This document shows positions 7,461-35,532 of a stretch of DNA of 64,000 bases, in pieces (position 1 is the first letter of the stretch; each line of letters begins with the position of its first letter). The notes beneath the pieces are model-generated. The model saw nothing but the letters and a program-made list of their open reading frames with translations. It searched no databases and had not been told where the DNA came from. The stretch lies in assembly GCA_964539595.1 (NCBI GenBank), contig CAZIJT010000001.1:4142-68141 (forward strand). The letters run 5' to 3'. Source of the DNA: an uncultured Thiohalophilus sp. (lineage in GTDB: Bacteria; Pseudomonadota; Gammaproteobacteria; UBA6429; Thiohalophilaceae). Made by a program: the position numbers and the translations under genes.

Positions 7461-7517
7461 GTACGGCTTGTAGGTTCGACTTCAGTCGTACATCGGTAGT
7501 TAGCCGTTCCTACAGCG
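7457..7517. repeat. REP-like nested palindrome (GTAGGTACGGC ... GTAGGTTCGACTTCAGTCGTAC ... GCCGTTCCTAC)
   Basis: It lies in the intergenic region after the nosB-like gene. The same GTAGGT.CG.CTTCAG.CG.AC core recurs at 10622, 25036, 39721, 47027, 55556, 58696 and 63381. Confidence 0.75.
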
Positions 7518-7550
7518 AATTAACCCTCAGATAGATAACAGGAATCATCT

Positions 7551-8816: not shown

Positions 8817-9649
8817 GCTCGCCAGCCCCACCTAAATCCCAGCCCAAACCTAAAATCAGCAACCGCCGTGCGCAACAAGCACGGCGTCGTTTCCTGCGTT
8901 CAATCGGCATGGGCGCGGGTATTGTGGGCGTAGCGATGCTGGGCTACTACCCGGTCGCCAGTCAATCTTTCCCTCGCCTGCGTCCCCCCGGTGCATTGGC
9001 CGAAAAAGAATACCTCGCCTCCTGCATTAAATGCGGTCAGTGCGTACAGGTTTGCCCGGTCAAGGCTATCGAACTGGCCGATGCTGAAGACGGCTTTGGT
9101 CTCGGTGCTGCCTGGATCGACCCGCGTAAACAGGGCTGTGATTTTTCCTGCGACGGTTTACAGTGCGTGCTTGCCTGCCCTACCGGTGCGCTCACCCATG
9201 AAACCGATTACCCACATGAAGTTCATATTGGCATAGCTCGACTGGATAAACCTAAACTTTGTCTGGCCGTTAATGGCCAGGGATTCAAGGGTAAAATTCG
9301 CGATGCTAATTTTCAGGGTCGCTTTCGCTATAATGAAATTGATCGCTGGAATCCGATCCCGGTGCGGGATCGAGATTTCGATCTGGAAATATGCGATCTC
9401 TGCGTGCGCCACTGCCCCATCGAAATTCGCCTCGCCCAGTGTGAAGCGGGCAAGCCACCGTCTGGAGATGAAAATCAGTGTCCTCCCCAACATGCGATCA
9501 AACTTGAACCCATTGTTAGTAACGATGGCCTGACCCGAATGAAGCCGGTCATCCTTGATGGCTGTGTCGGCTGCGGTGCCTGTGAAATGGTTTGCCCGAC
9601 CGAGCCTGCCGCGATTGTAATTGACGTTGAAAGTATCTTGAAGGCCTGA
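8813..9649 (+). CDS. nosG: NosG, Tat-exported NapG-like polyferredoxin
   Basis: It has a twin-arginine signal (RRRFLRSIGMGAG). It has four Cys clusters (CIKCGQCVQVCP, CDGLQCVLACP, CDLCVRHCP, CVGCGACEMVCP). A 4-bp ATGA overlap joins it to nosD. Confidence 0.8.
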   Translation: MSSPAPPKSQPKPKISNRRAQQARRRFLRSIGMGAGIVGVAMLGYYPVASQSFPRLRPPGALAEKEYLASCIKCGQCVQVCPVKAIELADAEDGFGLGAAWIDPRKQGCDFSCDGLQCVLACPTGALTHETDYPHEVHIGIARLDKPKLCLAVNGQGFKGKIRDANFQGRFRYNEIDRWNPIPVRDRDFDLEICDLCVRHCPIEIRLAQCEAGKPPSGDENQCPPQHAIKLEPIVSNDGLTRMKPVILDGCVGCGACEMVCPTEPAAIVIDVESILKA

Positions 9650-9652
9650 GTT

Positions 9653-10618
9653 ATGAATCTGTTTAAAGAATCCTTCATGCAGCTCATTGGCCGTGTACCA
9701 ACCCGCCCCTCGAAAGAAGACATCACACCTAAGGCAATCAAAGTCCACTTCAGAAAAAAAGGTGAGAAATTTGACGCGGATGAAGCGCGGCGATTACATG
9801 CCGAGCATGACAGTAAAAAATGGTTGCGCCGACGCTGGGCAACGCTTATCTCTATCAATCTGTTATTCGTGGTTTCTTATTATCTCGACATACAGTTGCT
9901 CGAAGGTGCGCTAACTGCCTCACGTTTTTTAGGCTTTCATATGGCCGATCTCAACTCGGCTCTACAGGTGATGCTGGCATATAAGCAGGTGTTGATTAAT
10001 TTACTGATAGGCACGGTCACCATCTTTTTAATGTGGTGGCTACTGGGTGGACGCACCTTCTGCTCCTGGATCTGCCCTTATCATCTACTCGCGGAATGGG
10101 CAGAAATGCTGCACCTGAAACTCACCGCAAAAGGACTGGTCAAGGATCATGATTTTCATCGCGGCTCTCGTAGCGTGCTCTATCTGATTTTCGTACTGCT
10201 AGCTCTGGTCACCGGCTATACCGTATTTGAAACTATTTCGCCGACCGGTATTCTCAGCCGCGCCTTAATTTATGGTCCCGGTCTGATTCTGATCTGGGTT
10301 GCCTTCCTGTTACTATTTGAAATTTTCTATTCGCGCCGTTTCTGGTGCCGCTATGCCTGCCCTATCGGACTGACGTATGGACTGGTTGGGCAAATTTCTC
10401 CACTGCGGATAAAGTATGTACTCGAGGACTGTCAGCACGAAGGTGACTGCCGCAAAGTCTGTTTGGTACCACACGTACTCGATACCGTGATCAAAGGCCG
10501 CGCGCAGGATATCGAAGTTCCCATCGGCGCTGACTGTACTCGCTGCGGCCTCTGCGTCGATGCCTGCCCAACCTCATCACTGCGATTTGATTTCAAAGGT
10601 TTGAATAAAATACTATGA
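9653..10618 (+). CDS. nosH: NosH, NapH-like integral membrane iron-sulfur protein (putative quinol dehydrogenase partner of NosG)
   Basis: Four TM segments with the CSWICP and CRYACP motifs. The C-terminal Cys clusters are CQHEGDCRKVC and CTRCGLCVDACP. Confidence 0.8.
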   Translation: MNLFKESFMQLIGRVPTRPSKEDITPKAIKVHFRKKGEKFDADEARRLHAEHDSKKWLRRRWATLISINLLFVVSYYLDIQLLEGALTASRFLGFHMADLNSALQVMLAYKQVLINLLIGTVTIFLMWWLLGGRTFCSWICPYHLLAEWAEMLHLKLTAKGLVKDHDFHRGSRSVLYLIFVLLALVTGYTVFETISPTGILSRALIYGPGLILIWVAFLLLFEIFYSRRFWCRYACPIGLTYGLVGQISPLRIKYVLEDCQHEGDCRKVCLVPHVLDTVIKGRAQDIEVPIGADCTRCGLCVDACPTSSLRFDFKGLNKIL

Positions 10619-10621
10619 GCA

Positions 10622-10648
10622 GATACGGCTGAAGCCGTACCTACAGGC
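10622..10648. repeat. REP-like hairpin (ACGGCTGAAGCCGT + CCTACAGG)
   Basis: Palindrome between nosH and nosF. It belongs to the same family as the element at 7457. Confidence 0.6.
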
Positions 10649-10747
10649 CATGCCAACTTTTCAGTATGCACAGGTATTGGAAACGCTTATTTAGCCGAGC
10701 ATTAAAACATTTTTCACTTTGTTTCAAATTGAGCAATATAATAACAA

Positions 10748-11605
10748 ATGATACTTTTCGATAAAGTCAGCAAGACATTTCGCCGTAATACGGTTCTCGA
10801 TCAGGTCGATCTAAGTATTGCTAGAGGTGATCGGGTGGCGCTGGTCGGCTCCAACGGTGCGGGCAAGACTACCCTCATTCGTTGTCTACTGGGTGAATAT
10901 ACCTGTGAAGGCCAGGTGCTGGTCGACGGCAAAAATCCCCGCGAGCATCGACGCGAGGTGCTGGCACGCTTTGGTTTTGTGCCGCAGTTGCCACCGCCAT
11001 TAAAAATGCCGGTCGGACAACTGCTGCGCTTTTCCGCCGCCCTTTGTAATGCCGATGTTAACGAAATGCAATCGGTGGCTGAACGGCTGGGACTCGACCC
11101 TGTCAAAATCCGTCATCAGCCCTTTGTTAAACTCTCCGGCGGACAAAAACAGAAATTACTGATCAGTATTGCCCTCGGGCGTAACAGCGATGTGCTGATC
11201 ATGGATGAACCGGCTGCCAATCTTGATCCCGAAGCCCGTCATGTGTTCTTCTCCCTACTCGCTGAAAAACAGGAACACGCGGCCATGCTCATTTCCAGCC
11301 ACCGGCTGGATGAAGTCGCGGCACTGGTTAACCGAGTCGTCGAAATGGATATGGGGCGCATCGTGCTCGATGATCACGTTGCTGATGATGTTGATATCAA
11401 TAGCCAACTGCTCTGTCGTATCACCCTGACCCGTCCTGAAGCCGCCTTTGCCAAAGCCATGAGCGAATGGGGCTTTAATGATTGTGATCATGGCAGCACC
11501 TGGGAAGGTACTGTGGCCGGGCCTGATCGTCTTCGCTATCTGGGGATGATCTCTCGCTATGCCGGTATTTTAAAAAATATGCAGATTGAGGAAAAACAGG
11601 AATGA
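10748..11605 (+). CDS. nosF: NosF, ABC transporter ATPase
   Basis: Walker A GSNGAGKTT, ABC signature LSGGQKQ, Walker B VLIMDEP. It lies in the nos cluster. Confidence 0.85.
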   Translation: MILFDKVSKTFRRNTVLDQVDLSIARGDRVALVGSNGAGKTTLIRCLLGEYTCEGQVLVDGKNPREHRREVLARFGFVPQLPPPLKMPVGQLLRFSAALCNADVNEMQSVAERLGLDPVKIRHQPFVKLSGGQKQKLLISIALGRNSDVLIMDEPAANLDPEARHVFFSLLAEKQEHAAMLISSHRLDEVAALVNRVVEMDMGRIVLDDHVADDVDINSQLLCRITLTRPEAAFAKAMSEWGFNDCDHGSTWEGTVAGPDRLRYLGMISRYAGILKNMQIEEKQE

Positions 11606-12060
11606 GATTTTTTCTCAGCAGCATACTCACCCTGCTCCTGCTCAATGGCTGTAGTGAGCCACAAACCGGCGCGATTGAGCCGCACTGGGATCGCGATACC
11701 TGCGAACGTTGCCGCATGGTGCTCAGTGATCGCTTTCACTCTGCACAGGTTCGTTTTACTGACGAGAAAAATAAATCCCGGGTACGGATGTTCGATGATG
11801 TTGGTTGCGCCATCATCTGGTTAGAAAATCAAGACTGGCGTGATAACAAAAGCACAGAAATTTGGGTAACGGATCATCGTGATGGTAACTGGCTCGATGC
11901 ACGTAACGCCTTCTATGTCCGTGGTCATAACACCTCGATGGAATATGGACTAGGTGCGCAAACCGAAGCATCTACTGAGAGTATGAATTTTCCTGCCGCC
12001 AGAAAATTCATTTTTGAAAAAGAAAAAAACAGCAATGCCCACGGTAGCCATCATCACTAA
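11602..12060 (+). CDS. nosL: NosL, copper chaperone lipoprotein
   Basis: Lipobox LLLNGC and a C-x2-C-x-M block (CERCRMV) as in the NosL family. It ends in a His-rich tail, HGSHHH. It lies between nosF and nosY and overlaps nosF by 4 bp. Confidence 0.75.
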   Translation: MRFFLSSILTLLLLNGCSEPQTGAIEPHWDRDTCERCRMVLSDRFHSAQVRFTDEKNKSRVRMFDDVGCAIIWLENQDWRDNKSTEIWVTDHRDGNWLDARNAFYVRGHNTSMEYGLGAQTEASTESMNFPAARKFIFEKEKNSNAHGSHHH

Positions 12061-12887
12061 TGAAATATTTATTACTCACCGCCTACACCGATATTCTTGA
12101 ATCCCTGCGCAGCCGCTGGTTTCTGGTTTACAGCACCGTGTTCGGCGGTATCGTCGTGCTGCTATTTCTATTCGGCTTAACCGAATCACGGATCATGGGC
12201 TTCACCGGCATCACCCGCATGATGATCACCTATATCCAGCTATCGATGGCCATCCTGCCTATTTTTATTTTAATTACCACGGTGCGCTCGGTGGCAGGTG
12301 ATCGGGAAGCCGGGGTATTTGAATATCTGCTCTCACTGCCTATATCCTTAAGCGCCTGGTTCTGGGGCAAAATGGCAGGCCGCTTTGTGGTTGTCTTTCT
12401 GCCGGTTTTCATGGCACTGGTTGGCGCGGTTGTCTGGGGCGCGATTAAAGGCTCCGATGTCCCCTGGATTATTTTTCTTTATTACTCGGCTTTACTGTTT
12501 TCACTAAGCTGGTGTTTTCTCGGCATCGGCATGTTGATTTCCACCCTGGCACGTTCCGCTGATGTGGCGCAGGGTGCGGCCTTCATCGTCTGGCTCACGC
12601 TGATCCTGTTTCTGGATTTAATTTTACTCGGGGTGATGATTCGAGAATCACTACCCCCCGATGCCGCCGTGGCGTTGGCACTGACCAATCCTTTACAAGT
12701 TTTTCGTACCGCCGCCATGCTCCTGTTCGACTCACAACTGGTGCTGCTCGGCCCCACCGCCTATGTGATTCTCGATAACTTTGGTCGCGTTGGTTATATG
12801 GTCTTCGCACTGGCGTATCCTATATTCCTCGGCAGTCTTTGTGCCTTTATCGGCTATTTAATGTTTCGGCGCAGTGACCTTCCCTGA
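12060..12887 (+). CDS. nosY: NosY, ABC-2 type permease
   Basis: 275 aa with about six TM helices. Its start overlaps the nosL stop (TAATG). Confidence 0.8.
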   Translation: MKYLLLTAYTDILESLRSRWFLVYSTVFGGIVVLLFLFGLTESRIMGFTGITRMMITYIQLSMAILPIFILITTVRSVAGDREAGVFEYLLSLPISLSAWFWGKMAGRFVVVFLPVFMALVGAVVWGAIKGSDVPWIIFLYYSALLFSLSWCFLGIGMLISTLARSADVAQGAAFIVWLTLILFLDLILLGVMIRESLPPDAAVALALTNPLQVFRTAAMLLFDSQLVLLGPTAYVILDNFGRVGYMVFALAYPIFLGSLCAFIGYLMFRRSDLP

Positions 12888-21489: not shown

Positions 21490-22970
21490 CAGCCGGTGGC
21501 GCGGGGAGCCTGTCTCACCGCCCCGCTATCTTCATTTTCAGATACATTTTCGAGTATCTGAAGCAGCGACCGCAGCTTCAGATCGGTTTCTGCCAACTCC
21601 CCCACTGGATCCGAATCCGCCACCACCCCCGCCCCGGCATACAGATCCGCCTGCCGTCCCTGCAACAGGGCGCAGCGCAAAATTACCGACAACTCACCAT
21701 TGCCACCGCGTTCCAGCCAACCTGCCGCGCCGGTGTACCAGCCTCGGGCAAACGGTTCATGCTGTTTGATCCACGCCTGCGCCTTCGCCGTTGGCGTCCC
21801 CGCCACCGCCGGGGTTGGGTGCAGACGAGCAACAATATCCAGTAAACCCACCCCCGCTCGTGCCTGCGCCTTGATCGGTGTCCACAAATGCTGGAGTTGC
21901 CGCAACGGCATTACCGCAGGCGTGTTCGGTAGCTGTAGGGATGAACACAGCGGATCAAGGGCACGCAGCATTTGATCTACCACCAGCGCATGTTCACGGC
22001 GAATCCGTGGACTCTGCATTAATTCATTCGTCATCGTCTGATTATGACCGGCACACTCACTACGCGGCATGGTGCCACCCAACGCATCGCAGCGCAGCTG
22101 CCCATCAGTAAACTGCACCAGTTTTTCTGGCGTCGCGGCCACCAGGGTCGAACCACCCAGACCGATACCCAATTGCGTGCAGCCCGGAAACTGCCGCGCC
22201 AACTTTTCTAGAATCTGTGTGGGGCGCAAGACTCGGCAAGCCTGAAAGTGCAGGTGACGTGCGGGCACAACCTTGGTGAATTCACCGGCATGGATCGCTT
22301 GCCGAACCTGCTCGACCTGCTTCAGCCAGGTTTCATTTTCAGGTTCAGACTGGATCAGTTGCAGGCCAGCGCACTGATCATCTTCCAGCCCCGCTGACTC
22401 TGATGTTAGTAACTCTCGGCATAACCCTAGCCAGTCCTGCACCTGTCGCAAACGTTGCGGCGGCGTACGTAAACATTCTGGTTTCGCACTCAGGTGTAAA
22501 CTTACCTGTTCGCCATCCTGTTGTAGCAACACCTGCGGCACGCTCAGCAGGGTATTCGGCCAGGCCTGCCAGGGCGCAGCTGCGGCTTCGTCTGCAGCAA
22601 ACGCAAAGCCCACAAACGCTGCCGCCTGTGGCAGGCGCGTCGAGCCATCCAGCGCATGCACCGCCCACCCGGCTTGCAGGCACCGAAAAGCCTGCTGTAG
22701 TTCGGCAACACGCGGTGCATCACCGCCGTCACCCGCCGCCGACTCATACGTATACGCACACCCCAGCCCTAACCTGAATCGATTACGATCAGGCTGGGCG
22801 CTGTAGAAAAACATTGCATCAGTAGCGGGAAGGTTAAACTTTGGCACTAGCGTCAGCGGCAGACTTAAGGTGCACAGTGCCGCCGTGTCTGGCCAACACA
22901 GATCATCCAGTGCCTGGCTCAGTTGAATTTGCAGCGCAGAAAGAAGCTTATTAATAGGGCAAGTTTTCAT
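21489..22970 (-). CDS. menF: isochorismate synthase
   Basis: 493 aa. The C-terminal chorismate-binding blocks are LHPTPAVAG, RGWY.G and AGAG.V. It is the first gene of the men operon. Confidence 0.8.
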   Translation of the reverse strand: MKTCPINKLLSALQIQLSQALDDLCWPDTAALCTLSLPLTLVPKFNLPATDAMFFYSAQPDRNRFRLGLGCAYTYESAAGDGGDAPRVAELQQAFRCLQAGWAVHALDGSTRLPQAAAFVGFAFAADEAAAAPWQAWPNTLLSVPQVLLQQDGEQVSLHLSAKPECLRTPPQRLRQVQDWLGLCRELLTSESAGLEDDQCAGLQLIQSEPENETWLKQVEQVRQAIHAGEFTKVVPARHLHFQACRVLRPTQILEKLARQFPGCTQLGIGLGGSTLVAATPEKLVQFTDGQLRCDALGGTMPRSECAGHNQTMTNELMQSPRIRREHALVVDQMLRALDPLCSSLQLPNTPAVMPLRQLQHLWTPIKAQARAGVGLLDIVARLHPTPAVAGTPTAKAQAWIKQHEPFARGWYTGAAGWLERGGNGELSVILRCALLQGRQADLYAGAGVVADSDPVGELAETDLKLRSLLQILENVSENEDSGAVRQAPRATG

Positions 22971-23218
22971 GGTAAATAAAACACACCGTTATTTGCAAGA
23001 TACGCCGGGCAGATTTTAACAGGTATAAGTAAAGCCTGATCCTCAGTATTAGCGGTTAACCGGCAATCATCATGATCAAATTGACACGCCACCAGCCACC
23101 ACTAATAAGCCTATAACTTATAACAGTATGCGATTGATCTGAAACAATGTTCACTCCAGCCACAAACAATAGTATTCTATCATCTATACATCAAATTTCT
23201 TTCCCACATGAGCAAAAC

Positions 23219-23557
23219 ATGAAAAAAGTCGGCTTCCTGATCTTCCCACTACTACTTCTTAGCAGCGCCCCAGCATCTGCCACTACTGACGCACAACAAC
23301 AGGCCATCGACTCGCTCGGGCAATTAAATGGCATTGCCCTACAGTGCAAACAAAAGGCAGAGATGCAGCGCATGAAACAGGCGATGGTGGCGAACCTGCC
23401 CAAACAACGTCAACTTGGTGAGCGTTACGACAAGGCCACCAATCAATCTTTTCTCGACTTTGCCCGTACTAATCAACACTGTCCACAGAACACCGACTTT
23501 AGCCGTCAGATAGACACGGCCATCGACAAATTAAAGCACGCCTTCCACTCGCACTAG
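23219..23557 (+). CDS. small secreted protein, two Cys, His-rich C-terminus (hypothetical)
   Basis: I used the internal ATG at 23219. It has a signal peptide MKKVGFLIFPLLLLSSAPASA. It lies immediately upstream of the ZnuA-Sco fusion gene. Confidence 0.5.
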   Translation: MKKVGFLIFPLLLLSSAPASATTDAQQQAIDSLGQLNGIALQCKQKAEMQRMKQAMVANLPKQRQLGERYDKATNQSFLDFARTNQHCPQNTDFSRQIDTAIDKLKHAFHSH

Positions 23558-23567
23558 CCGTTTTATT

Positions 23568-24983
23568 ATGCCCAGTATGAATTACCGTATCCTCTGCCTG
23601 CTGCTTGGTCTATTGGGCAGTGGCCTGGTACAGGCAACCTCCTTGCACATCGTAGTCAGCATCAAGCCCATTCATTCGATCATCAGCGGCCTGATGGAAG
23701 GTGTCGAGCAGCCCGAACTACTGATCTCAGGTAACGCCAGCCCTTACACCTACCAGCTAACTGCGGCGCAAAAGGCATCACTAAAAACTGCCGATCTAAT
23801 TATCTGGACAGGCGCGGAGCTTGAACCCTTTTTGCCCGAGGAGCTAAAAAAACTCAAGGCCCCCAGCAAGATCATTGAGTTATTGAACAACCCGGAAATC
23901 AAGGTTCTGCCACAGCGCAAAGACGAAACACGCCGCGATCCCTACCTCTGGCTCGACAGCCGCAACGCCCTGATTCTGCTCGATGCCTTCACCCGTATGC
24001 TGATCGATCTTGATCCCGTTCGCACCCATCTCTATGTGCGCAACCGCGCTAACATGCTCGCCGTTTTATCCCGCGTTGATCGAGAGCTGGAATATGGTTA
24101 TCGCGGAATGAAAGCAGGCGTGGGCTACCTCTACTATGACAGTCTGCAATATTTTGAACAGGCTTATGCGCTGAAAATACGCGGCACATTGTTAACCGCA
24201 CCCAATGAGCCGATTAACACTCAACAACTGCTACAGGCGCATGCCCAGCTCAATAATGGTGATTACCGTTGCCTGTTGGTAGAGACGGACGTTAGCGATG
24301 CACAGATTCAATTACTGACAGGGGACGCCAACATCAACATTGGCCGACTGGACAGTATGGGGCGGCAATTCAAACCCGGCGCTGATTTATACGCAAAGCT
24401 GATGCGTTATAACACTCGGGTAATAAAAGACTGTCTCGGAATTCAGGATCAGGATGCGGCAGATACACTCACTCAAAACAGCAATGCTATCGCTGGTAAT
24501 ATTGGCGGCCACTTTATTATGGTCAACCATCGTGGCGAACAAATCACGGATCGAGACATGCGGGGCAAATACCAGCTGATCTATTTCGGTTACACCTCAT
24601 GCCCCGATGTCTGCCCCATGTCTTTGCAGGTCATGTTGCAGGCGCTTAAAAAAATCGGCGACAAAGCCGCTGCTTTTCAGCCCTATTTTATTACTGTTGA
24701 TCCTGAACGCGATAGCCAGACAGTGATGCAGGACTATGTTAATTACTTTGACCAACGCATCATCGGACTCACCGGCACACCGAATATGACCGAGATCATG
24801 GCCCAACATTTCCGTATTCGCTACGAGAAAGTAATCAATGATCCTGAACATCCAGAAAACTACCAGATGGATCACACCTCAAGTATTTTTATTATCGATC
24901 CCAAAGGCCAATTTGTTGCCCGCGTCGCCAGCAATATTACAGCCCGGCAAATGGCCGCGCGTTTACTGGAGCTGGTTGATTAA
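23568..24983 (+). CDS. fusion of a ZnuA/TroA-like periplasmic binding domain and a Sco1/SenC copper chaperone domain
   Basis: The N-terminal ~290 aa match cluster A-I SBP blocks (IKPIHS, SPYTY, ADLIIWTG.ELE.FL, DPYLWLD, YDSLQYF). The C-terminal ~170 aa carry the Sco motif YFGYTSCPDVCP and the downstream DHTS block. Confidence 0.8.
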   Translation: MPSMNYRILCLLLGLLGSGLVQATSLHIVVSIKPIHSIISGLMEGVEQPELLISGNASPYTYQLTAAQKASLKTADLIIWTGAELEPFLPEELKKLKAPSKIIELLNNPEIKVLPQRKDETRRDPYLWLDSRNALILLDAFTRMLIDLDPVRTHLYVRNRANMLAVLSRVDRELEYGYRGMKAGVGYLYYDSLQYFEQAYALKIRGTLLTAPNEPINTQQLLQAHAQLNNGDYRCLLVETDVSDAQIQLLTGDANINIGRLDSMGRQFKPGADLYAKLMRYNTRVIKDCLGIQDQDAADTLTQNSNAIAGNIGGHFIMVNHRGEQITDRDMRGKYQLIYFGYTSCPDVCPMSLQVMLQALKKIGDKAAAFQPYFITVDPERDSQTVMQDYVNYFDQRIIGLTGTPNMTEIMAQHFRIRYEKVINDPEHPENYQMDHTSSIFIIDPKGQFVARVASNITARQMAARLLELVD

Positions 24984-25035
24984 TTGCTTTAGCAAATAAT
25001 CAACCCCACGCTAAGCAGACAGGATATCTGCGTAT

Positions 25036-25060
25036 CTAGGTACGGCTTCAACCGCACAGG
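25036..25060. repeat. REP-like element fragment (CTAGGTACGGCTTCAACCGCACAGG)
   Basis: It shares the GGTACGGCTTCA core with the elements at 7457 and 10622. Confidence 0.5.
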
Positions 25061-25079
25061 AAATTAACCCCGTAGAGAC

Positions 25080-25577
25080 TCACTCAGCAATATAATCATA
25101 TTTAATAATATGATCTTTGACGATGCCTTTTTTTATCACTTGAATGAAACCATCGAGAAATTCAATGGTGCAAGGGTTTGAGCTGCCACAGTCAAACTGG
25201 ATCTGACCATCGACTCTACGAAAATCATCAAGGTGTGCAACGACCTGTTTGTCCAGCAAACCGAATGTATCTCGTATATAAGCACTGCCTGCGGTACTGC
25301 CACTAGCCGCCGCAAAAACCTTGTTTATCATCTCCGATGAAAGCTGCTTCGAATATGGATAAGGAATGTATAATCTTAGTACTCTGTCACCAGGATAAAA
25401 TTTCACATAATGGCTCTTGCCAGACATCTCGGCCATCTTGCCATCATTTTCCTGTCTGGAAAAATAACCTGAATAAACGACAATATCTTCCTTTTCCTGC
25501 TCCGCGTAGGCGAGCCCCGAAAATAGTATTGATACCACGATAGCGAGCAACGGAAAGGCCCTGGTGACTGTCATCAT
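25080..25577 (-). CDS. secreted hypothetical protein
   Basis: I preferred the internal start MMTVTRAFPLLAIVVSILFSGLAYA, which has a GAGGA RBS upstream. No motif recognised. Confidence 0.5.
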   Translation of the reverse strand: MMTVTRAFPLLAIVVSILFSGLAYAEQEKEDIVVYSGYFSRQENDGKMAEMSGKSHYVKFYPGDRVLRLYIPYPYSKQLSSEMINKVFAAASGSTAGSAYIRDTFGLLDKQVVAHLDDFRRVDGQIQFDCGSSNPCTIEFLDGFIQVIKKGIVKDHIIKYDYIAE

Positions 25578-25815
25578 TATTATCCTCAAACTGTTTAAAA
25601 TAACGTAAAATTTGGCATAGAATAACACCCGGCAAGATACTTGCGCCAGCAATATAGCAGCAGAAACAAGACCTGAATTATGCCCCGGCGCATGTTCAGA
25701 ACAAATGCCTGTGCTATACTTCTGTATCTGCAAATACACTGTCAATTTTGACATAAATTTAACATCGCCAGACTGTATTTGACCAACATTCTAAGCGCAG
25801 CTATACACAAGATTA

Positions 25816-26130
25816 ATGCAACGATTTTTTAATACTGGCTGGACTTTATCTATTTTTATGGCGCTAATCTGCATACTGGCTGCTCCTGTTAACACCCTCT
25901 ATGCCTCTGAGCATTCTCCATCCGCTACTGCACGAACATCCACACTGCCAGCAGGCGAACTAGCAACGACGACACCGGCAGAAAATAAAACCTCAGCAGC
26001 CAAAAACCCGGAAAGAAAACTCTCTGCTTTTTTTAAAGTTGGCATTGCTATTAATATCGCCATGATGCTTACCTTTGCCTGGTGGGCGCAGCGCCAATGG
26101 CGAATGTCTACAAAAAACAAGGATACCTAG
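25816..26130 (+). CDS. small membrane protein (hypothetical)
   Basis: 104 aa with a signal/TM segment and a C-terminal TM. Its stop overlaps the start of the downstream Sco gene (TAGATG). Confidence 0.45.
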   Translation: MQRFFNTGWTLSIFMALICILAAPVNTLYASEHSPSATARTSTLPAGELATTTPAENKTSAAKNPERKLSAFFKVGIAINIAMMLTFAWWAQRQWRMSTKNKDT

Positions 26131-26760
26131 ATGACGACAAAATCATCTTCGCTCAACAAGAGCCTGTTATTATTTCTCATCTCTATGCTGATCCTCGCGG
26201 CAATCGTCGTATTCAGGCTACTACCGTCGAAGCAAATACCCGCCGAATTGCAGGCCGTATTACGCATTCAGCCAGTAACATTAACCGACTTTGAACTCAC
26301 GGATCAAAGCGGCAAAGCCTTTACTCTGGCGCAACTAAAAGGCAAAAGAACCCTGCTGTTTTTCGGCTATATGTCCTGCCCGGATATCTGCCCGACAACA
26401 CTAACCACACTTGCTCAGCTGGTAAAAAAACTTGACGCCTATGCTAATGCCGATTTACAGGTGGTGTTTGTCTCGGTCGATCCAAAACGCGACCCACCTG
26501 AAAAACTGGCCGAATACTTAAATTATTTTAATCCTAATTTTATCGGCCTTGGCGGTGACAAAGAAGCCATCGATAAGTTTACCCGTCAGTTTGCTGCAGG
26601 CTATATGCTGGAAGAAGAACAGAAGGACGGTAATTACCTTGTCTCACATACCAGTTCAATTTTTATGATCGATCCACAAGCCAAACTCATCGCAACATTT
26701 TCGCCACCACATCAGATTGATACTCTTGTTTCTCTGTATCGTCAGATCAAGAAAATCTAA
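26131..26760 (+). CDS. Sco1/SenC family copper chaperone
   Basis: N-terminal TM anchor, the FFGYMSCPDICP CxxxC motif, and a downstream SHTSS His block. Confidence 0.85.
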   Translation: MTTKSSSLNKSLLLFLISMLILAAIVVFRLLPSKQIPAELQAVLRIQPVTLTDFELTDQSGKAFTLAQLKGKRTLLFFGYMSCPDICPTTLTTLAQLVKKLDAYANADLQVVFVSVDPKRDPPEKLAEYLNYFNPNFIGLGGDKEAIDKFTRQFAAGYMLEEEQKDGNYLVSHTSSIFMIDPQAKLIATFSPPHQIDTLVSLYRQIKKI

Positions 26761-26788
26761 ATTCGCTTTCGACTGAGCTGATATCTCA

Positions 26789-27217
26789 ATGGACATCATT
26801 CCGTTTTTACCGCCATTACAGGCCGGACTCAATGCTTTGTCTACACTGCTGCTGAGTCTGGGTTATTATTTTATTCGCAACAAAAATAAAACCGCACACC
26901 GTCGCTGTATGATCTCGGTGCTATTTGTTTCCACCCTGTTTACCATCTCCTATCTGTATTACCATTCCCAGGTAGGTAATGTTGCCTTTGCGGGTCAGGG
27001 GCTTATTCGACCGGTTTATTTTTCGCTTCTTATTTCACATATTTTTCTGGCCGCCCTGATCATTCCAATGGTATTAACGACTGTCTGGCGAATCATCCAG
27101 CGGCAAACAGAACGACATCGACAACTGGCTCGCTGGACATTGCCCGTGTGGCTGTATGTCTCGGTCACTGGAATCATGATCTACATCATGGCCTTTCATC
27201 TTTATCCCACAACATAA
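26789..27217 (+). CDS. DUF420 family membrane protein (oxidase-assembly associated)
   Basis: 142 aa with four TM helices. The N-terminal LNA.S..LL..G...I block is typical of DUF420. It is adjacent to the Sco gene. Confidence 0.6.
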   Translation: MDIIPFLPPLQAGLNALSTLLLSLGYYFIRNKNKTAHRRCMISVLFVSTLFTISYLYYHSQVGNVAFAGQGLIRPVYFSLLISHIFLAALIIPMVLTTVWRIIQRQTERHRQLARWTLPVWLYVSVTGIMIYIMAFHLYPTT

Positions 27218-27570: not shown

Positions 27571-28947
27571 TTATTTCGGGCGCGTGGCTTTGATCACAAT
27601 AATAAGAAAAATGATGCCACCAACAATGGCAACCAGCCCGCCCATTCCCATCAGTCCCATGCCCGCGACTTTCTCAATTCCATCCAGTCCCTGCGCCGCA
27701 CCTGCAGTTTTACGCTGCACCCCATAGCCGCCCGACCAGGCCAGCCCGGTCACATGCATCAATTGTCCAACCGCATAGATAACCGGTTGCAGACGAACCA
27801 TTTTCCCTTCTGGTTTTCTAAAGCCGAGACGCGGCAGTAAATGGTAGGTAATACCCATAAAGGCCAGCGTCACCGCGACAATTGAACCGTGATAATGAGC
27901 CGGTACGGTTACATTGCTGCCACTGATCATAAAACCAATCACGCCACCAACGCCGAATAATAAAATCGAACTCAACAATGCATTGGTTTCTGCGCTCGCC
28001 ATAAGTCGATTGCTACCGACTAACAGGCTATAAACAATAATCAGACCTACTGGCAAGGCCGCCAGTCCTCCACCGTATTGCATCAACCAGGTGATCGCCT
28101 GCAGATGATCACCCCCACCCACATCAAACATGAAATAAACAACGGGTGTACTCAACACCGGGATCACACCCAGAGCAAATAAAACCAGCGCCACTCGCGG
28201 GGTAAGCCGGGGCACGACGCCTGATATTGTCGCCAGACATAACCAGGCCACCAGCATTAGCTGAATATGAACAAATTGTAATGTGTGCCCACTGCCCCAG
28301 AACAGCAGTTCATAATAATGTTTGCCCGTCGCGCTCTCAGGCATCCCGTACCAGGAGGCGAGCAGGGCAAAGACGGCAGTAAATGCGGCAATCAGCGCGG
28401 TGTATAAACCAAAGCGTATCGCGCCCGCGCCACTGATAATCGCGCCGATGGAGCGGGAAAACAGCAATCCACGCAGCACGGTAATGCTAAAGCCAATCCC
28501 AAACATGCCCAGCCCGGTGAAAAAAATCGGATCCTGTAGCACCGGGACATAGTTGTTCATCAGCGGTTCAGCTGCCCCCAGAAACGGGGCGATGACAATA
28601 ATGCAGGATCCGGCAATCGCCAGCCACAAACCCAACCAACCACATGCCGTGCAACGTGCCGTACTGTTAAGACTCCAGAACATGCCGGCATACCCCAGGA
28701 ACCAGACCAGCACGGTTAGATCGACATGCACCACCAAGGCGGTATGAAAGAAATCTACCCAGGGAATAATTTCCTGAATAAACGGTGTTCTGGATAACAC
28801 CAGCAGAATAGTAAACAGACCGGCGACCAGCAGTGAACCAACCGCCAGCATTAACCAGCCTATGCCGATTTGGGTGCTGGCGTGATCATCCGGCACATCC
28901 AGTGAAAAACTGTCTAGCAAGGCATTTGGAGTGTATTCTGTTTTCAT
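27571..28947 (-). CDS. divergent heme-copper oxidase superfamily subunit I-like membrane protein
   Basis: 458 aa with about 12 TM helices. His residues fall in an HCO-like pattern: FFHTALVVH (helix II), FWGSGHTLQF (compare FWFFGHPEVY), D280-H281 where HH is expected, and VPAHYHGSIV (compare VAHFHYV). Confidence 0.55.
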   Translation of the reverse strand: MKTEYTPNALLDSFSLDVPDDHASTQIGIGWLMLAVGSLLVAGLFTILLVLSRTPFIQEIIPWVDFFHTALVVHVDLTVLVWFLGYAGMFWSLNSTARCTACGWLGLWLAIAGSCIIVIAPFLGAAEPLMNNYVPVLQDPIFFTGLGMFGIGFSITVLRGLLFSRSIGAIISGAGAIRFGLYTALIAAFTAVFALLASWYGMPESATGKHYYELLFWGSGHTLQFVHIQLMLVAWLCLATISGVVPRLTPRVALVLFALGVIPVLSTPVVYFMFDVGGGDHLQAITWLMQYGGGLAALPVGLIIVYSLLVGSNRLMASAETNALLSSILLFGVGGVIGFMISGSNVTVPAHYHGSIVAVTLAFMGITYHLLPRLGFRKPEGKMVRLQPVIYAVGQLMHVTGLAWSGGYGVQRKTAGAAQGLDGIEKVAGMGLMGMGGLVAIVGGIIFLIIVIKATRPK

Positions 28948-29109
28948 GTTATCTCGCGTTCGCGTATTGAATCCCGCTAACAGATACCACTGCCAGACAG
29001 AAAAAGAGGATTAAAATACGAGGCCGAATGGTAACAAAGTCGGGTTCAGAACGACACAGCGATTGTGGATCAAACCAGCCTTTGCTAAACGCGCTGTTTT
29101 AGCTTTCAG

Positions 29110-29616
29110 CTATTTAATCGTAAACTGACCCGCACCAGAAATGAATTCAACAATAACGTGCTGCTCAGGTTTGAGGTCAACATCCTGCTCAAGTTTGTAG
29201 ATGGGACCATCAACATTCACATCATCATTAAGCCAGGCAAGCAGGCGATGCTTTCCCGCCGGCACCTTAATGTTGTGATAAATATCGATACCCTGATCTT
29301 TAAACAACCCAAGTGGCATGGCTGTTTTATTGAAAATCACCTCACCGTCCATCTGCAATTCCATCGTGATCGACGAGCGCTCACGGCTGCACTCCATAGG
29401 CTTGCGCATGTTGGGCGCAAGTTTGAGTAATTCTTCCTGAGTCAAGCGCCTGCATTCATCCACATGTTTGCCCACATGCCCCAGGGTAAAGGTAATCAGT
29501 GACTGATCTTTATCAAGTTGATGATAGGTAGGGTACAGGGAAAAATACCACACCAGTCCCATAAACAGACTGTAGTTAAAAATTTGAAGCGGTATCCGTA
29601 AAAAAAACTTATTCAT
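29110..29616 (-). CDS. membrane-anchored beta-rich protein (hypothetical)
   Basis: I used the start MNKFFLRIPLQ, which overlaps the upstream stop (ATGAATAA). It has one TM segment and then a domain of about 130 aa with two Cys. There is no CuA motif. Confidence 0.5.
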   Translation of the reverse strand: MNKFFLRIPLQIFNYSLFMGLVWYFSLYPTYHQLDKDQSLITFTLGHVGKHVDECRRLTQEELLKLAPNMRKPMECSRERSSITMELQMDGEVIFNKTAMPLGLFKDQGIDIYHNIKVPAGKHRLLAWLNDDVNVDGPIYKLEQDVDLKPEQHVIVEFISGAGQFTIK

Positions 29617-31165
29617 GACCAGCCTCACTGGCGCTCGCCTGCTCACGCTTTAGTTGTGCCAGTTTGTGCTGAAATAAATCCAGCTCCTTGCGCAATTTTT
29701 TGCAGTCCGTCTCCACCGCCCTGAAAACATTAATGCGCAGGCGATCAGCTCGCTTGCGTAAACTCGGTTGACGCGATCCGTCAAAACGTTCATCAAACCA
29801 GCGGTTACCATGGCGGTAATAACAATCACCTGTACGACAACCGGTAACAAAAACACCATCCGCACCCTGCTTGAGGGCGTATTCGATCATCGTGGGCGGG
29901 ATCATGCCAACACAGAAATAACTAATCACCGCAATATTAGAAGACTTTAGACCGGCAAAATCGATGGCATTATCACAACCAAATACCACTACCTTGTTCT
30001 CACCTTGAAGCTGGGCAACCGCCGAGCTGACATGCGTGCGGATATCATTGACCGGTTCCTGCGGCATATCGATACCCGTCACCAGTTCTTTTTTCGCATG
30101 TCGGAAAGGATTAGATGAGTGACAGGATCCCACGCAAATTCCACAAGCGGCACACAAATCCTCATGCACAACCACTTCATGCTCCCAGCGCGCGCCATCG
30201 GTGCGCTTCTGCACACTGATAGCGTCGAAAGGGCAATCCATGGCACATTGCTCACAGCCATTACATTCATCCAGATGCACCTCGGCGGCGGCACCCGTCT
30301 TTTTCGGTGGCAACCAGGGCATCAACATTAGAAACACCGTAACGCCGATAGTTAAAACCCAAACCTGTCCAGTTGACCAGTTATCCAGCAGCGGATAAAT
30401 ATTTAAATAAAACCAGTCAATATTCAGCTCCGCCGATGTTTTGCTAATATCCGCCACCTCGTGACTCACTGCCGGGACTATCAATGAGAGGCTCAGTAAG
30501 GCAATAAAACTGCCCACCGCCAGCCCTCTTGGGGCAATAATAGAAACATCGGAAAGGCGCTTAACATGAATCCACAAGGCAAAGGCGAGGAAGACTGGTT
30601 GACCCAGTAGGTGCAAAAATCCCATCAGGGTAAAAAAGCGATCATTAATCTGGCTTTCAAGAAAATTGCGTGACATCGAGGCGGGTAAAAGCGGCAGGGC
30701 GTCCATCAGCTGGGATGACTTGATCGCAACATAAAACGCCAGCTCATCCCACACCAGCCAGTAACCCGTAATCCCCAGGGTCACGACAAACCAGAGCAAC
30801 GGTACTCCAGTTACCCAGGAAAACCAGCGAAATCCCCGATAACGATCCAGCGAAAATTCCCTGAACATATGCAAAATAATGGTGATCACCACGGCATCAG
30901 ATGCATAGCGATGCAGGCTGCGCATAACACCCGCCGCATACCATTGCTCGTTTGTCATATATTCTACGGACGCATACGCACCCGAAAGACTGGTATCAAA
31001 AAAGATAAACAGGTAGAGGCCGCTAACAAAGACTACCCAGAAAAAAAAGAAGGCCAGGGTTCCGAGGTGATAAAGTGGGTTCCACTCATTTCCAAAGGAA
31101 ATATTAAACCAGTTTTCCAGTGCCAGATAACCGCGTTTGGCCGGATTGATATAACTCAAAATCAA
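29609..31165 (-). CDS. fusion protein: bc1/b6-type diheme cytochrome b domain + two 4Fe-4S ferredoxin motifs + MvhD/FlpD-like domain
   Basis: - **Cytochrome b domain:** the N-terminus has MRSLHRYASDAVVITIILHMFRE and GYWLVWDE. A second His pair lies in FLHLLGQPVFLAFALWIHV (four heme ligands).
- **Fe-S motifs:** CNGCEQCAMDCP and CAACGICVGSC.
- **MvhD/FlpD-like domain:** the C-terminus has VVFGCDNA...YFCVGMI...GADGVFVTGCRTGDCYYRHGN. Confidence 0.75.
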   Translation of the reverse strand: MILSYINPAKRGYLALENWFNISFGNEWNPLYHLGTLAFFFFWVVFVSGLYLFIFFDTSLSGAYASVEYMTNEQWYAAGVMRSLHRYASDAVVITIILHMFREFSLDRYRGFRWFSWVTGVPLLWFVVTLGITGYWLVWDELAFYVAIKSSQLMDALPLLPASMSRNFLESQINDRFFTLMGFLHLLGQPVFLAFALWIHVKRLSDVSIIAPRGLAVGSFIALLSLSLIVPAVSHEVADISKTSAELNIDWFYLNIYPLLDNWSTGQVWVLTIGVTVFLMLMPWLPPKKTGAAAEVHLDECNGCEQCAMDCPFDAISVQKRTDGARWEHEVVVHEDLCAACGICVGSCHSSNPFRHAKKELVTGIDMPQEPVNDIRTHVSSAVAQLQGENKVVVFGCDNAIDFAGLKSSNIAVISYFCVGMIPPTMIEYALKQGADGVFVTGCRTGDCYYRHGNRWFDERFDGSRQPSLRKRADRLRINVFRAVETDCKKLRKELDLFQHKLAQLKREQASASEAGHE

Positions 31166-31254
31166 TGTCCCCTGAGATTGCAGATGTTCATGATAATTCC
31201 GAGTAGAATAGTATGGATTTTAGTCGCTGGGACGCAAAGTGTCTTTGATCTTTA

Positions 31255-32142
31255 TCAAATGCCGGGTGGCCGTTTGCCGTACCGGTATTCACGCACAATA
31301 AAAACAATCGTGTAGATGATAATCGACAGGCCGATAAACATGCCGATGAAAAGCGAATAATCAAACTGGTAGCTGTCAGTGAAGGGATCATAGGTGGTAC
31401 AGAAGAAACGTACATCGTCCACCAGGCTGGAAAAAAAGCTCTGACTGGGTTTGGGCTGTCCCAGCACCAGTTCCATCAGGGGTTCAACCAGCAACTGGGT
31501 ATCAAAAACCTCACCATAGACCTGGCGATAAATTTTACCTGTTGCATCGACCACGGTTGCCTGCACGACATGATCAAAACCATTGGGGGAAGAAAAGAAT
31601 TTAAACCCCAGTTCTTTGGTTAACGCAGAAATGGTCTTCCTGTCAGCGCTGAGCAAGTGCCAGTTACTGTTGTCGATTCCCTGTTTTTTGGCAAAATTCT
31701 GCATCGCCTGTGGATTGTCATATTGCACATCAAAGCCAATAACTGCAACGGAAAAACTGTCATCCCCCAATGCCTCACGCGCCTTCTCCACTACACTCGA
31801 AAGGTGGCGAATGGTCATCGGACAGATTGCGTAACAGCTAGTGTAAACCATGCTGATCACCAGCGGCTTACCTAAAAAAATCTCAGTGGATACTGCCCGG
31901 CTATGCTCATCGGTCAAAGAAAAATGACTCAGAGTGCGCCCTATCGCATCCTGACTGGCCTGCAAGGCAGACTTGTACTGAAATTTCTGAATAGATTTCT
32001 GCGGGGGGACTATATCTTCAGAAGTAGCGTGCGCATACAGCGCAGGAAGCATGAGCAACAGGGCGAGAAAAACTGAACGGATACTGAGAATCAGAGGCCG
32101 TGTTATTGAGGTGGTAAAAAACATCAACCACCGTTGGGTCAC
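31255..32142 (-). CDS. Sco1/SenC-like protein with C-terminal transmembrane extension
   Basis: Signal/TM segment, a thioredoxin-fold CxxxC motif (YTSCYAICP), and a FDHVV His block. An extra ~70-aa tail ends in a TM helix. It overlaps the ctaB stop by 4 bp. Confidence 0.7.
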   Translation of the reverse strand: MTQRWLMFFTTSITRPLILSIRSVFLALLLMLPALYAHATSEDIVPPQKSIQKFQYKSALQASQDAIGRTLSHFSLTDEHSRAVSTEIFLGKPLVISMVYTSCYAICPMTIRHLSSVVEKAREALGDDSFSVAVIGFDVQYDNPQAMQNFAKKQGIDNSNWHLLSADRKTISALTKELGFKFFSSPNGFDHVVQATVVDATGKIYRQVYGEVFDTQLLVEPLMELVLGQPKPSQSFFSSLVDDVRFFCTTYDPFTDSYQFDYSLFIGMFIGLSIIIYTIVFIVREYRYGKRPPGI

Positions 32143-33255: not shown

Positions 33256-34992
33256 CTAACCACCCATCGGCCAGACCGAGGCCAGATACTTCCAGTTAAT
33301 GAAGTAGTAAACCACGAAGGTTACTAGCAGCAAGATCGCCAGGGCGAAGGTTCCCGGAGCTTCGAAGCCAGAGCCGTGATGTTCTTCTTTCGGCTTGGGT
33401 GCCATTTCCAGTCTTTCAGGTTTGGCAATATTATAAACTGATGCTGCCAATGGCTTGCCAATGAAGCACTCCAGGAAACCAGCCGAGGCTTCCAGTTTCT
33501 TACCGAACAGCAGAGAGCCCACGGTAATCAGCAAGAAGGCACCGCCACCTACAATGGCGAGCACACCACCGATACAGCCAATGGCCATCAGGGTATACGC
33601 CATGCCGGAATATTCAAAGGTCAGCAGAGCACCGGTGAAGTCCATATCCCAATGACGACGAGATACACCCAGCGTTCCTGCACCCAGCATGAACAGAATC
33701 AAGATGACCATGCCACCACTGAAAATATACGGTTGCAGTTTGGCTAGCCAGGGGAGGATTATCTGGCGACGGAATAATACTGGAATCAACAGATACGTCA
33801 GCGCCATAAACGCCAGCGTTGTACCCGTCACCACCGTTGCATGGAAATGCGCAGGCACATAAATCGTATTATGGATGATCAGGTTAATCTGCTCTGTCCC
33901 CATGACGACACCGGTGATACCACCAATGAAACCGAAGGTAACCAGCGAGATGAACATGCCAGAGAAGACAGGATTGCCCCAGGGTGCCTTACGCAGCCAT
34001 TCAAATAGCCCCTTGGTCAGCCCCTTACCACGTTGAGCGACTTCGATGGAACCCGGTACGGTCAGACCATGAATCATACTGGCGAGTACGGCCAGGTACA
34101 TGGCATAACTGGTGTTGAAGATTTTCCATTCAGTACTCATGCCCGGATCAACCAGGATGTGATGCGCACTGGCCAGCTGCAGGAAGAAAATATACAGCAG
34201 GAACGCAAAACGGCTGACTTTCTCCGACATGGGACGCGCACCAAACAGAATACCGGCAAGCAAATACCAGATGGCAACATGTGCTGACACGTTAATCTGC
34301 TGTGAGGAGTGACCCAGTGCCCACCAGATCACGCGATACATTTCCGCATCGATGTGATTGATATAACCCACTGACCAAAGAAACGTAGGAACCAGAATAA
34401 TCGCGCCACTTGCAATGGTAAACACGGCAATGATGGCGGCCACAATCGCACCAAAGGTTACAATCGGCACGGAACCGTCATAGGTCTTTTCCTGCTGCGC
34501 AACAACCAGCGTACCGAAAAAGACGAAGACCTGAACCAGCGCGCCGACAGCAAACAGAATCAATCCCAGATAGAAATGCGGTGCCGCCTGCATAGGTACA
34601 TAGGAAGTCATCATCACACTCGAGTTACCCTGAAATACCGCGACATTGTTCATGATCGCGCCAATCAGCATCAGGAAGAACCCGGCCCATGCCCACCCCG
34701 GCGTAGCCAGTCGGCAACGCAGCAAGGTAGTCGAGGCGAAATGCAGGATGGCCATTTCAAAAAAGATAACCCAGAAAATCAGGGCATTGATACCATGCCC
34801 CGTCAACACCTGGTAGAAAAGATCAGCCGAAAGTAGATGCACTTCCTGCCAGCGAGTGAGCACAACTCCCAACGCGAGAATACCGGCTATTAACAAAGCA
34901 ACAACACCGGCAACCGCATTCACCTTCATCAGGCGTTCTGCGTCACGGTTAAAATAAAATCCCGAATCGGGACATTGACGAAATGCAGACAT
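33256..34992 (-). CDS. heme-copper oxidase superfamily subunit I, B-family-like with atypical active-site helix VI (candidate NO reductase or atypical oxidase)
   Basis: 578 aa. Helix II is YQVLTGHGINALIFW. The CuB His lies in WWALGHSSQQ instead of GHPxVY. It has an SAHH pair and a VPAHFHATVV heme-ligand pair. Confidence 0.8.
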   Translation of the reverse strand: MSAFRQCPDSGFYFNRDAERLMKVNAVAGVVALLIAGILALGVVLTRWQEVHLLSADLFYQVLTGHGINALIFWVIFFEMAILHFASTTLLRCRLATPGWAWAGFFLMLIGAIMNNVAVFQGNSSVMMTSYVPMQAAPHFYLGLILFAVGALVQVFVFFGTLVVAQQEKTYDGSVPIVTFGAIVAAIIAVFTIASGAIILVPTFLWSVGYINHIDAEMYRVIWWALGHSSQQINVSAHVAIWYLLAGILFGARPMSEKVSRFAFLLYIFFLQLASAHHILVDPGMSTEWKIFNTSYAMYLAVLASMIHGLTVPGSIEVAQRGKGLTKGLFEWLRKAPWGNPVFSGMFISLVTFGFIGGITGVVMGTEQINLIIHNTIYVPAHFHATVVTGTTLAFMALTYLLIPVLFRRQIILPWLAKLQPYIFSGGMVILILFMLGAGTLGVSRRHWDMDFTGALLTFEYSGMAYTLMAIGCIGGVLAIVGGGAFLLITVGSLLFGKKLEASAGFLECFIGKPLAASVYNIAKPERLEMAPKPKEEHHGSGFEAPGTFALAILLLVTFVVYYFINWKYLASVWPMGG

Positions 34993-34995
34993 AAC

Positions 34996-35532
34996 TTATT
35001 CCCCCACGTAAATCTTGCCAACCATAGTATGGTGGCCAATACCGCAATATTCGTTACAAATAACCCCGTACTCACCTGCTTTATCTGGAGTCATATTTAT
35101 AACCATTTCATAGCCTGGAATCACCTGCAAATTGATGTTAACGGGTTGCAGGGAGAAGCCATGCTGATAATCCATTGCGGATAAATGAAAACGGTAGCTC
35201 TTGTCTTTTTCCAATTCCAGGATCGGCCACCACTGCCACAAACGTCCCAACATGTAGACGTCACTGCCAGCAGGCGGATGCACAACCGGAATACCGGATT
35301 CTTCACGCACCGTGTACTTGTCGATCATTTCCTGAACCTTAACCCCGTATGCAGCAGGCGTGGTTTGATAGGCCTCAGTAGAAAGGTTCTGTTTTCCATA
35401 AATATGCCAGATAGGCATCATGGCAAACATAATTAAACACCAGATCAGGGCAATGGCAATCCACACGAGCTCCTGACGCCCGACAGGCACATTCCACCAA
35501 ATTCGGTCAGAAGGCGGTAAAAATGTAGTCAT
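34996..35532 (-). CDS. heme-copper oxidase subunit II with CuA centre
   Basis: 178 aa with a single TM helix, a cupredoxin His block (DYQHGF) and the CuA motif CNEYCGIGHHTM. Confidence 0.85.
   Translation of the reverse strand: MTTFLPPSDRIWWNVPVGRQELVWIAIALIWCLIMFAMMPIWHIYGKQNLSTEAYQTTPAAYGVKVQEMIDKYTVREESGIPVVHPPAGSDVYMLGRLWQWWPILELEKDKSYRFHLSAMDYQHGFSLQPVNINLQVIPGYEMVINMTPDKAGEYGVICNEYCGIGHHTMVGKIYVGE

Follow-up and report, generated by a model that had tools for sequence, protein, structure and literature searches.

A Sco module with a degenerate ZnuA-like domain, probably associated with clade II nitrous-oxide reductase in sulfur-oxidising Gammaproteobacteria

Assembly of the CuA centre of oxidases is the textbook role of Sco proteins. 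For nitrous-oxide reductase (NosZ), apart from which no biological sink for N2O is known to us, the supply of copper to the CuA centre is, as far as we are aware, poorly understood, especially in the Sec-type clade II enzymes that fold in the periplasm. In Bacillus azotoformans, SenC/Sco paralogues occur in the nos and alternative nitric-oxide reductase clusters and were read by the authors as a CuA insertion factor (PMC3475470). Another related architecture is that of AdcA of Streptococcus pneumoniae (ZnuA plus ZinT, PDB 7jj9), in which a cluster A-I fold is covalently joined to a periplasmic metallochaperone domain, and both domains bind zinc and feed an ATP-binding cassette (ABC) importer. 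Here, we analysed a 64,000-nucleotide stretch of DNA from an uncultured Thiohalophilus sp. (contig CAZIJT010000001.1, hereafter the window), in which a plus-strand gene at positions 23568-24983 encodes a protein of 471 amino acids (aa) that combines a ZnuA-like with a Sco domain and is directly preceded by a gene for a small secreted protein. We consider it probable that the two genes encode a periplasmic Sco module that is associated with nos and whose ZnuA-like domain is free of metal and repurposed. As in B. azotoformans, a Sco-type gene lies within or beside a nos cluster, but the SenC of that organism is a membrane-bound single-domain protein that has neither a ZnuA-like domain nor a small partner. 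We found no published description of the fusion, of its partner, or of a nos-linked Sco protein in these bacteria; the literature yielded only the report on SenC of B. azotoformans.

The architecture of the fusion was delineated from its open reading frame (ORF) by Pfam, AlphaFold2 and Foldseek. A Sec-type signal peptide (residues 1-23, ending ...LVQA/TS; 23568-23636; cleavage site inferred from the sequence) is followed by the ZnuA-fold domain (residues 28-289; 23649-24434; Pfam PF01297, E 1.8e-36, 126 bits against a cut-off of 29), a disordered interdomain linker (residues 296-314; 24453-24509) and the Sco1/SenC thioredoxin-fold domain (residues 313-449; 24504-24914; PF02630, E 9.8e-48, 162 bits against a cut-off of 22.8), all on the plus strand. 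As read from the sequence, the N-terminus has no lipobox and no membrane anchor. The protein contains the motifs SPYTY (58-62), DPYLW (124-128), YDSLQYF (190-196) and CPDVC (345-349). In the AlphaFold2 model, which was built from 119 homologues and reached a mean predicted local distance difference test (pLDDT) of 88.4 and a predicted template-modelling score (pTM) of 0.61, the signal peptide appears as an N-terminal helix of lower pLDDT. The N-terminal domain of this model matched E. coli ZnuA (2osv) and the C-terminal domain human SCO1 (1wp0), each with a template-modelling (TM) score of 0.90 in Foldseek. Both folds named in the initial annotation of this gene were thus confirmed, whereas no confident packing of one domain against the other was obtained: with a linker pLDDT < 50 and a pTM of 0.61, the model describes two well-folded domains whose mutual orientation carries no confidence.

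The Sco domain has the features by which the family is recognised, namely the Sco1/SenC hidden Markov model (HMM) match, the thioredoxin fold, and a CxxxC motif with a distal histidine. Cys345 and Cys349 within CPDVC (24600-24614) and His436 (24873-24875) were invariant in 119-120 homologues, with His436 present in 119 of 120 and a gap in the other. These residues align with the CPDVC and DH motif residues of human SCO1, which are the established copper ligands of the family. The covalently attached CxxxC Sco domain postulated in the initial annotation is therefore intact. In comparison with Sco1/SenC/ScoI (PF02630; human SCO1, 1wp0 and 2ggt; Bradyrhizobium ScoI Blr1131, 4wbj and 4txo), the thioredoxin fold is alike (TM 0.88-0.90), the CPDVC motif and the His of DH(T/S) coincide with the copper ligands, and identity amounts to 36-37%. 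However, the usual N-terminal membrane anchor of Sco proteins is absent, and a cleavable-type signal peptide and a 260-residue ZnuA-fold domain precede the soluble Sco domain instead. Furthermore, unlike these proteins the fusion is paired with a small two-Cys protein and is linked to clade II nos genes, not to cytochrome oxidase genes.

The N-terminal domain shares with ZnuA and other cluster A-I proteins (PF01297; E. coli ZnuA, 2osv) the fold, the motifs DPxxW, xDxxxYF and LDxxG and the C-terminal disulfide pair, yet variable hydrophobic residues stand where ZnuA has its three His ligands. A phmmer alignment with the solved ZnuA of E. coli and Salmonella placed Y60 (23745-23747) beneath the His of ASEHDY, Y126 (23943-23945) beneath the His of NMHLW and Y190 (24135-24137) beneath the His of FHDAYGYF, and the same columns were obtained in an alignment with 121 canonical representatives, all of which read P-H/H/H/D. 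The observation of Tyr residues at the ZnuA ligand positions, with which the initial annotation started, consequently stands. The three-His (or His/His/Glu/Asp) interlobe ligand set of cluster A-I solute-binding proteins is not found in the fusion, which also lacks the His-rich loop that is an insertion in E. coli ZnuA. The initial annotation had gone further and suggested that the exchange is a consistent swap which retains a site with harder, phenolate ligation. In this reading, the site might take up Fe(III) or Cu(II), for instance, and relay the metal to the Sco domain. Three Tyr at the ligand positions, the retained D124, D191 and D262, and the Y/Y/Y triad in all of the closest five relatives (65-84% identity) are in line with such a relay, and AdcA provides a precedent for a solute-binding protein fused to a chaperone domain.

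However, the triad proved not to be consistent. Among the 120 best homologues of the fusion, Y/Y/Y was found in only 27, next to Y/F/Y in 27, F/F/Y in 21, F/Y/Y in 10, F/F/F in 7 and other combinations; the individual positions were Tyr in 71 and Phe in 45 (first), Phe in 66 and Tyr in 49 (second), and Tyr in 90, His in 14 and Phe in 14 (third), so that Phe takes the place of Tyr in 12-55% of the homologues. Relatives at 58-66% identity carry W/W/Y, F/W/Y or Y/Y/L, and one genome's copy reads L/F/D. On the maximum-likelihood tree of the family, the three ligand positions required a minimum of 20, 18 and 16 changes, while the framework positions P59, W128, Y195, D262 and Y189 required 1, 0, 0, 3 and 5, respectively. 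The kept D124, D191 and D262 are framework residues common to canonical ZnuA according to the alignment, and no new Cys-, Met- or His-rich motif was detected in the N-terminal domain, where H154 is the sole clade-specific potential ligand. Because the hydroxyls come and go freely across the homologues, this is not a conserved phenolate metal site, and we regard a metal relay through the three Tyr as very improbable. Judged by the sequences, the former ligand positions are constrained to bulky hydrophobic residues and not to a hydroxyl.

At least 626 relatives of the fusion are present in the protein database under automatic names such as 'SCO family protein' and 'metal ABC transporter solute-binding protein, Zn/Mn family', and each of the best 120 carries both domains. 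The survey therefore showed the fusion to be a common, automatically annotated protein, and the Tyr triad not to be a feature of its family. An exhaustive search with the N-terminal domain in 1.8 billion cluster representatives returned degenerate sites in the top ~30 clusters, where the first position is occupied by Y, F, L, W, T, Q or R and the third often still by His; most full-length members of these clusters are Sco-fused. The boundary was sharp, as from about E 1e-45 on nearly every listed match was a canonical His/His/His ZnuA. The fusion scored 108.9 bits against the NCBIfam model of ZnuA proper (NF007091, cut-off 268), and it stayed far under every cut-off of the ZnuA, AztC and MntC equivalogs.

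The loss of the ligands was not accompanied by a loss of constraint. Mean pairwise identity is 54% for the N-terminal domain versus 60% for the Sco domain, and 28 N-terminal positions are at least 90% conserved in the fusion clade and conserved in < 30% of canonical ZnuA. Many of these clade-specific near-invariants are Arg, the set comprising R123, R132, R152, H154, R158, R160, R172 and E175-Y-G-Y-R-G180; R123 immediately precedes D124-P125, and the Arg-rich set adjoins the former site. The disulfide pair of ZnuA is kept as C235/C289. Apparently, the domain is under strong selection and is not decaying, which suggests a new function, most simply perhaps that of a protein-binding surface. With strong selection and a conserved Arg-rich surface of its own, the domain would most likely be a docking or adaptor module. 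Alternatively, the domain might bind a ligand that is not a metal or is a chelated metal, for instance a copper complex, within the now aromatic pocket, which would serve copper capture in sulfidic, copper-poor habitats: bulky, aromatic residues persist at the pocket positions, conservation matches that of the Sco domain, the Arg-rich set, R123 included, flanks the former site, and the module occurs in sulfur oxidisers from vents, seeps and symbioses. Yet the pocket residues vary freely, as is seldom the case in a specific ligand site, and forms of the module without the ZnuA-like domain exist, so we consider ligand capture hardly probable at all.

The N-terminal domain has the two-lobed fold with a long backbone helix of cluster A-I solute-binding proteins, with PF01297 above its cut-off and a TM of 0.90 to 2osv. 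No ABC-3/ZnuB permease (PF00950) was detected in the source genome (2.92 Mb, 286 contigs, 88% complete), using a search that found matches in 13 of 14 control genomes, and the fusion gene is the only ZnuA-family match in this genome. For the comparison of gene context, 80 related loci from species genomes and the window were analysed by all-against-all clustering of their ORFs, and a cognate ABC-3 permease with its ATPase was absent from the 80 related loci as well. The absence of a cognate permease, noticed earlier in the surroundings of the gene, thus extends to the source genome at its completeness of 88%. Unlike ZnuA, the fusion is therefore accompanied by no ABC-3 permease in its genome and displays a new clade-specific conserved surface; unlike AdcA, in which both domains serve zinc import, it combines a ZnuA-like domain whose site is gone with a Sco (copper) domain, in the absence of an importer. 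This example warns that the fold alone gives no ground for the name 'zinc ABC transporter substrate-binding protein'.

The gene directly upstream encodes a protein of about 112 aa (23219-23557, plus strand; the listed ORF starts at 23147, and the MKK start was taken from homologues). It lies directly upstream of the fusion gene and on the same strand in 78 of the 81 loci, and in most pairs the stop and start codons overlap by 4 bases. The protein consists of a signal peptide and a predicted four-helix bundle (helices 24-42, 46-59, 64-84 and 91-110; AlphaFold2, pLDDT 89, pTM 0.76). Its Cys43 (23345-23347) and Cys88 (23480-23482), invariant in an alignment of 61 sequences together with N37, A40, L41, K53, P61, G67 and T74, are both predicted to lie in loops just past helices 1 and 3. 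No Pfam or NCBIfam family matched the partner, and Foldseek yielded no match at E up to 0.001; VIA-align returned generic helical-bundle matches only (Z <= 6.5), type II secretion system pilotins among them at Z 5.3. TIGR02301, proposed by a language-model score of 0.91 only, was not confirmed, with none of the 61 members matching the NCBIfam HMM at E up to 1.

Co-occurrence was assessed in an even set of 300 genomes of the class, to which the window's own genome was added for the search for the partner (301 genomes). None of the conclusions draws on the genomes G296 and G141, which are marked as unpublished. Three genomes of this sample have a split form, in which the partner gene is followed by a gene for a soluble Sco protein with a signal peptide and without a ZnuA-like part, 44-53% identical to the fused Sco domain. 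In one of these genomes, a separate, stand-alone degenerate ZnuA-like gene with an F/Y/H triad is located elsewhere, after a DsbA-like and a DsbD_TM/CcdA gene. The split forms indicate that the core module consists of the partner and a soluble Sco protein, to which the ZnuA-like domain is a separable add-on. In a further locus (L026, G244:C11, 9350-11074), the gene for a ZnuA-family protein of 358 aa (28% identity) directly precedes a separate Sco gene, which may be an independent ZnuA-Sco pairing.

The exactly two invariant Cys of the partner raise the alternative that the module is mainly a thiol-disulfide relay of the TlpA/ResA type, in which the CxxxC motif and the partner Cys would reduce the CuA cysteines of NosZ and the ZnuA-like domain would dock to the source of reductant. 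The thioredoxin fold of Sco proteins with weak AhpC/thioredoxin matches, the stand-alone ZnuA-like gene after the DsbA-like and DsbD_TM/CcdA genes, and a DsbA-like thioredoxin gene directly upstream of the pair in one Sedimenticola locus all fit this role. However, thiol-redox neighbours were seen in only 2 of about 85 loci, the partner Cys pair may be a mere structural disulfide, and the invariance of the third copper ligand His436 argues for copper binding. Part of the evidence fits a redox relay, which would leave room for copper delivery beside it, but as the main function of the module we judge such a relay unlikely.

A recurrent context of the pair is the nos gene cluster. In the window, a clade II cluster on the plus strand at 2381-12887 comprises nosZ, a cytochrome c gene, a nosB-like gene, nosD, nosG, nosH, nosF, nosL and nosY, as assigned by Pfam (nos_propeller plus cupredoxin, NosD, Fer4, ABC_tran, NosL and ABC2), and in its NosZ a Sec-type signal was recognised along with the CuA motif CTEFCSALHLEM. 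The cluster ends 10.3 kb upstream of the pair, with menaquinone genes in between. Homologues of the window nos genes, in a strict comparison, were found within 8 kb of the fusion in 36 of the 80 related loci. The order partner-fusion-nosZ was observed in about 27 loci, where nosZ starts about 120-320 bp past the fusion gene, and nosF-nosL-nosY precede the pair in about 9 loci. A menA homologue is near the pair in 16 loci, mostly upstream, with other menaquinone genes close by. Of the genomes that carry the pair away from nos genes, all 10 tested encode NosZ elsewhere. In the class sample, NosZ was present in 42 of 300 genomes and the partner protein in 8 of 301, and all 8 of the latter were NosZ-positive with the long-ORF type. 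Recurrent adjacency to nosZ is thus joined by co-occurrence with it; as the genomes are related and hence lack statistical independence, we regard this as a strong association and not as a formal test. The NosZ ORFs of the checked module-bearing genomes are of the long type, mostly 767-827 aa and in one case 738; one further ORF of 616 aa is possibly cut at a contig end.

In line with a place in the nos system, an FNR/DNR-like box, TTGATCTGAAACAA, is found at 23134-23147 (plus strand), a consensus match only, with 1 mismatch to TTGAT-N4-ATCAA, 72 bp before the MKK start of the partner; a similar box lies about 90 bp before nosZ. In the window as a whole, 12 such boxes were observed against 3.5 expected. 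Among the related loci, 16 of 72 have a box of no more than 1 mismatch in the 200 bp that precede the partner, compared with 18 of 360 control windows. Consensus scans of 22900-25200 gave no promoter above shuffled sequences and no clear terminator 3' of the fusion gene.

Several further observations concern the nos cluster and NosZ. The menaquinone set directly after the nos cluster (window 2381-22970 for both) is full and includes ubiE/menG, menE, a thioesterase gene and menC, A, B, D and F. Together with the menaquinone genes that flank the fusion in 16 related loci, it suggests that in these Gammaproteobacteria N2O respiration of the NosGH type and a pool of menaquinone travel together. 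The source genome encodes a second NosZ (contig C125 of G000, 6847-7059) of the short type with an ORF of 634 aa, the NosZ of the window having 764 aa. The latter contains a helical C-terminal extension of ~100 residues past the cupredoxin domain (residues about 665-764; window 4375-4675), in which no haem motif or Pfam family was recognised.

Downstream of the fusion gene, two ORFs, 25080-25754 (minus strand, 224 aa) and 25816-26130 (plus strand, 104 aa), for which neither a Pfam or NCBIfam match nor a homologue in the related loci was found, separate it from a gene for a Sco paralogue of 209 aa (26131-26760), after which a DUF420 gene follows (26131-27217 for the two). A divergent haem-copper oxidase (HCO) subunit I of 458 aa is encoded on the minus strand at 27571-28947, with a Pfam COX1 match of only E 4.7e-13. 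It adjoins a 178-aa ORF without a family (27571-31165, minus strand, for this region), and beside the two lies a gene whose product of 518 aa joins cytochrome b to a 4Fe-4S dicluster and an FlpD/MvhD-like domain. A perfect FNR box is located upstream of the region (31245-31258), of which no homologues were seen in the 80 related loci. Another Sco paralogue of 295 aa with a weak SCO1 match (31255-32142) precedes ctaB, and a B-family HCO is encoded at 33256-35532. With the fusion, the Sco genes number three in 9 kb, and each of them adjoins the locus of a different copper enzyme.

The initial annotation had suggested a metal relay for the adjacent copper enzymes, and the fusion might be an ordinary CuA chaperone for subunit II of the HCOs in the window. 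At a distance of 2.6-10 kb from it are two HCO loci, along with ctaA, ctaB and the two further Sco paralogues, and such a function would fit the textbook role of Sco proteins in the assembly of oxidase CuA. However, homologues of the HCOs, ctaA, ctaB, DUF420 or the cytochrome b-FeS genes of the window were present in none of the 80 related loci, where the recurrent partners are the clade II nos genes. Furthermore, both oxidase loci are equipped with a Sco paralogue of their own (26131-26760 and 31255-32142), and among the genomes tested the module was seen only in NosZ-positive ones. We therefore consider the oxidases decidedly unlikely clients. The more general idea that the fusion helps copper enzymes to mature and does not serve import is plausible, but with the nos genes in the place of the adjacent oxidases.

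Taken together, we favour the explanation that the pair at 23219-23557 and 23568-24983 is a soluble periplasmic Sco module of the clade II, Sec-type NosZ system of sulfur-oxidising Gammaproteobacteria. Its working part would be the C-terminal Sco domain, which, as in other Sco/SenC proteins, would bind copper via Cys345, Cys349 and His436, keep target cysteines reduced, or both, and the most likely client would be the CuA site of NosZ, an enzyme that folds in the periplasm. The small four-helix, two-Cys protein would be the obligate partner and is a candidate copper donor, redox partner or adaptor. In the ZnuA-fold domain, the three former His ligands would have given way to interchangeable bulky hydrophobic residues that plug the old site, and the domain would most likely act as a docking or adaptor module in place of the usual membrane anchor of Sco proteins. 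The analysis shows the domain architecture, the lost and variable ligand positions, the intact Sco ligands, the operon partner and the association with nos genes; the delivery of copper to the CuA site of NosZ and the docking role are inferred.

Several points weigh against this explanation. In the window, the pair is 10.3 kb away from nosY yet beside two HCO loci, and about a quarter of the loci with long flanks (10 of 45) have no nos or men neighbours. The module is missing from many genomes with long-type NosZ and is accordingly an accessory and not a requirement; NosL and NosDFY are present and may be enough for copper delivery. The counts come from related genomes, whose kinship makes them not statistically independent, and the docking role is read from conservation only, the model giving no confident domain contact (pTM 0.61). 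A more specific version, which we put forward as a tentative possibility short of being likely, is a three-part CuA assembly line for Sec-exported clade II NosZ, in which the partner and the Sco domain would cooperate with the former zinc-binding domain as a docking or capture module for apo-NosZ, NosD, NosL or a copper complex.

The conserved Sco-based module in NosZ-positive genomes is a concrete candidate for the loading of NosZ CuA with copper, which is testable in cultivable Sedimenticola. It also presents a case in which the fold of a metal-binding protein was apparently kept under selection after losing its metal site. If true, the three-part assembly line would be the first defined route of CuA maturation for N2O reductase and would exemplify how a solute-binding protein can become an adaptor of a chaperone.

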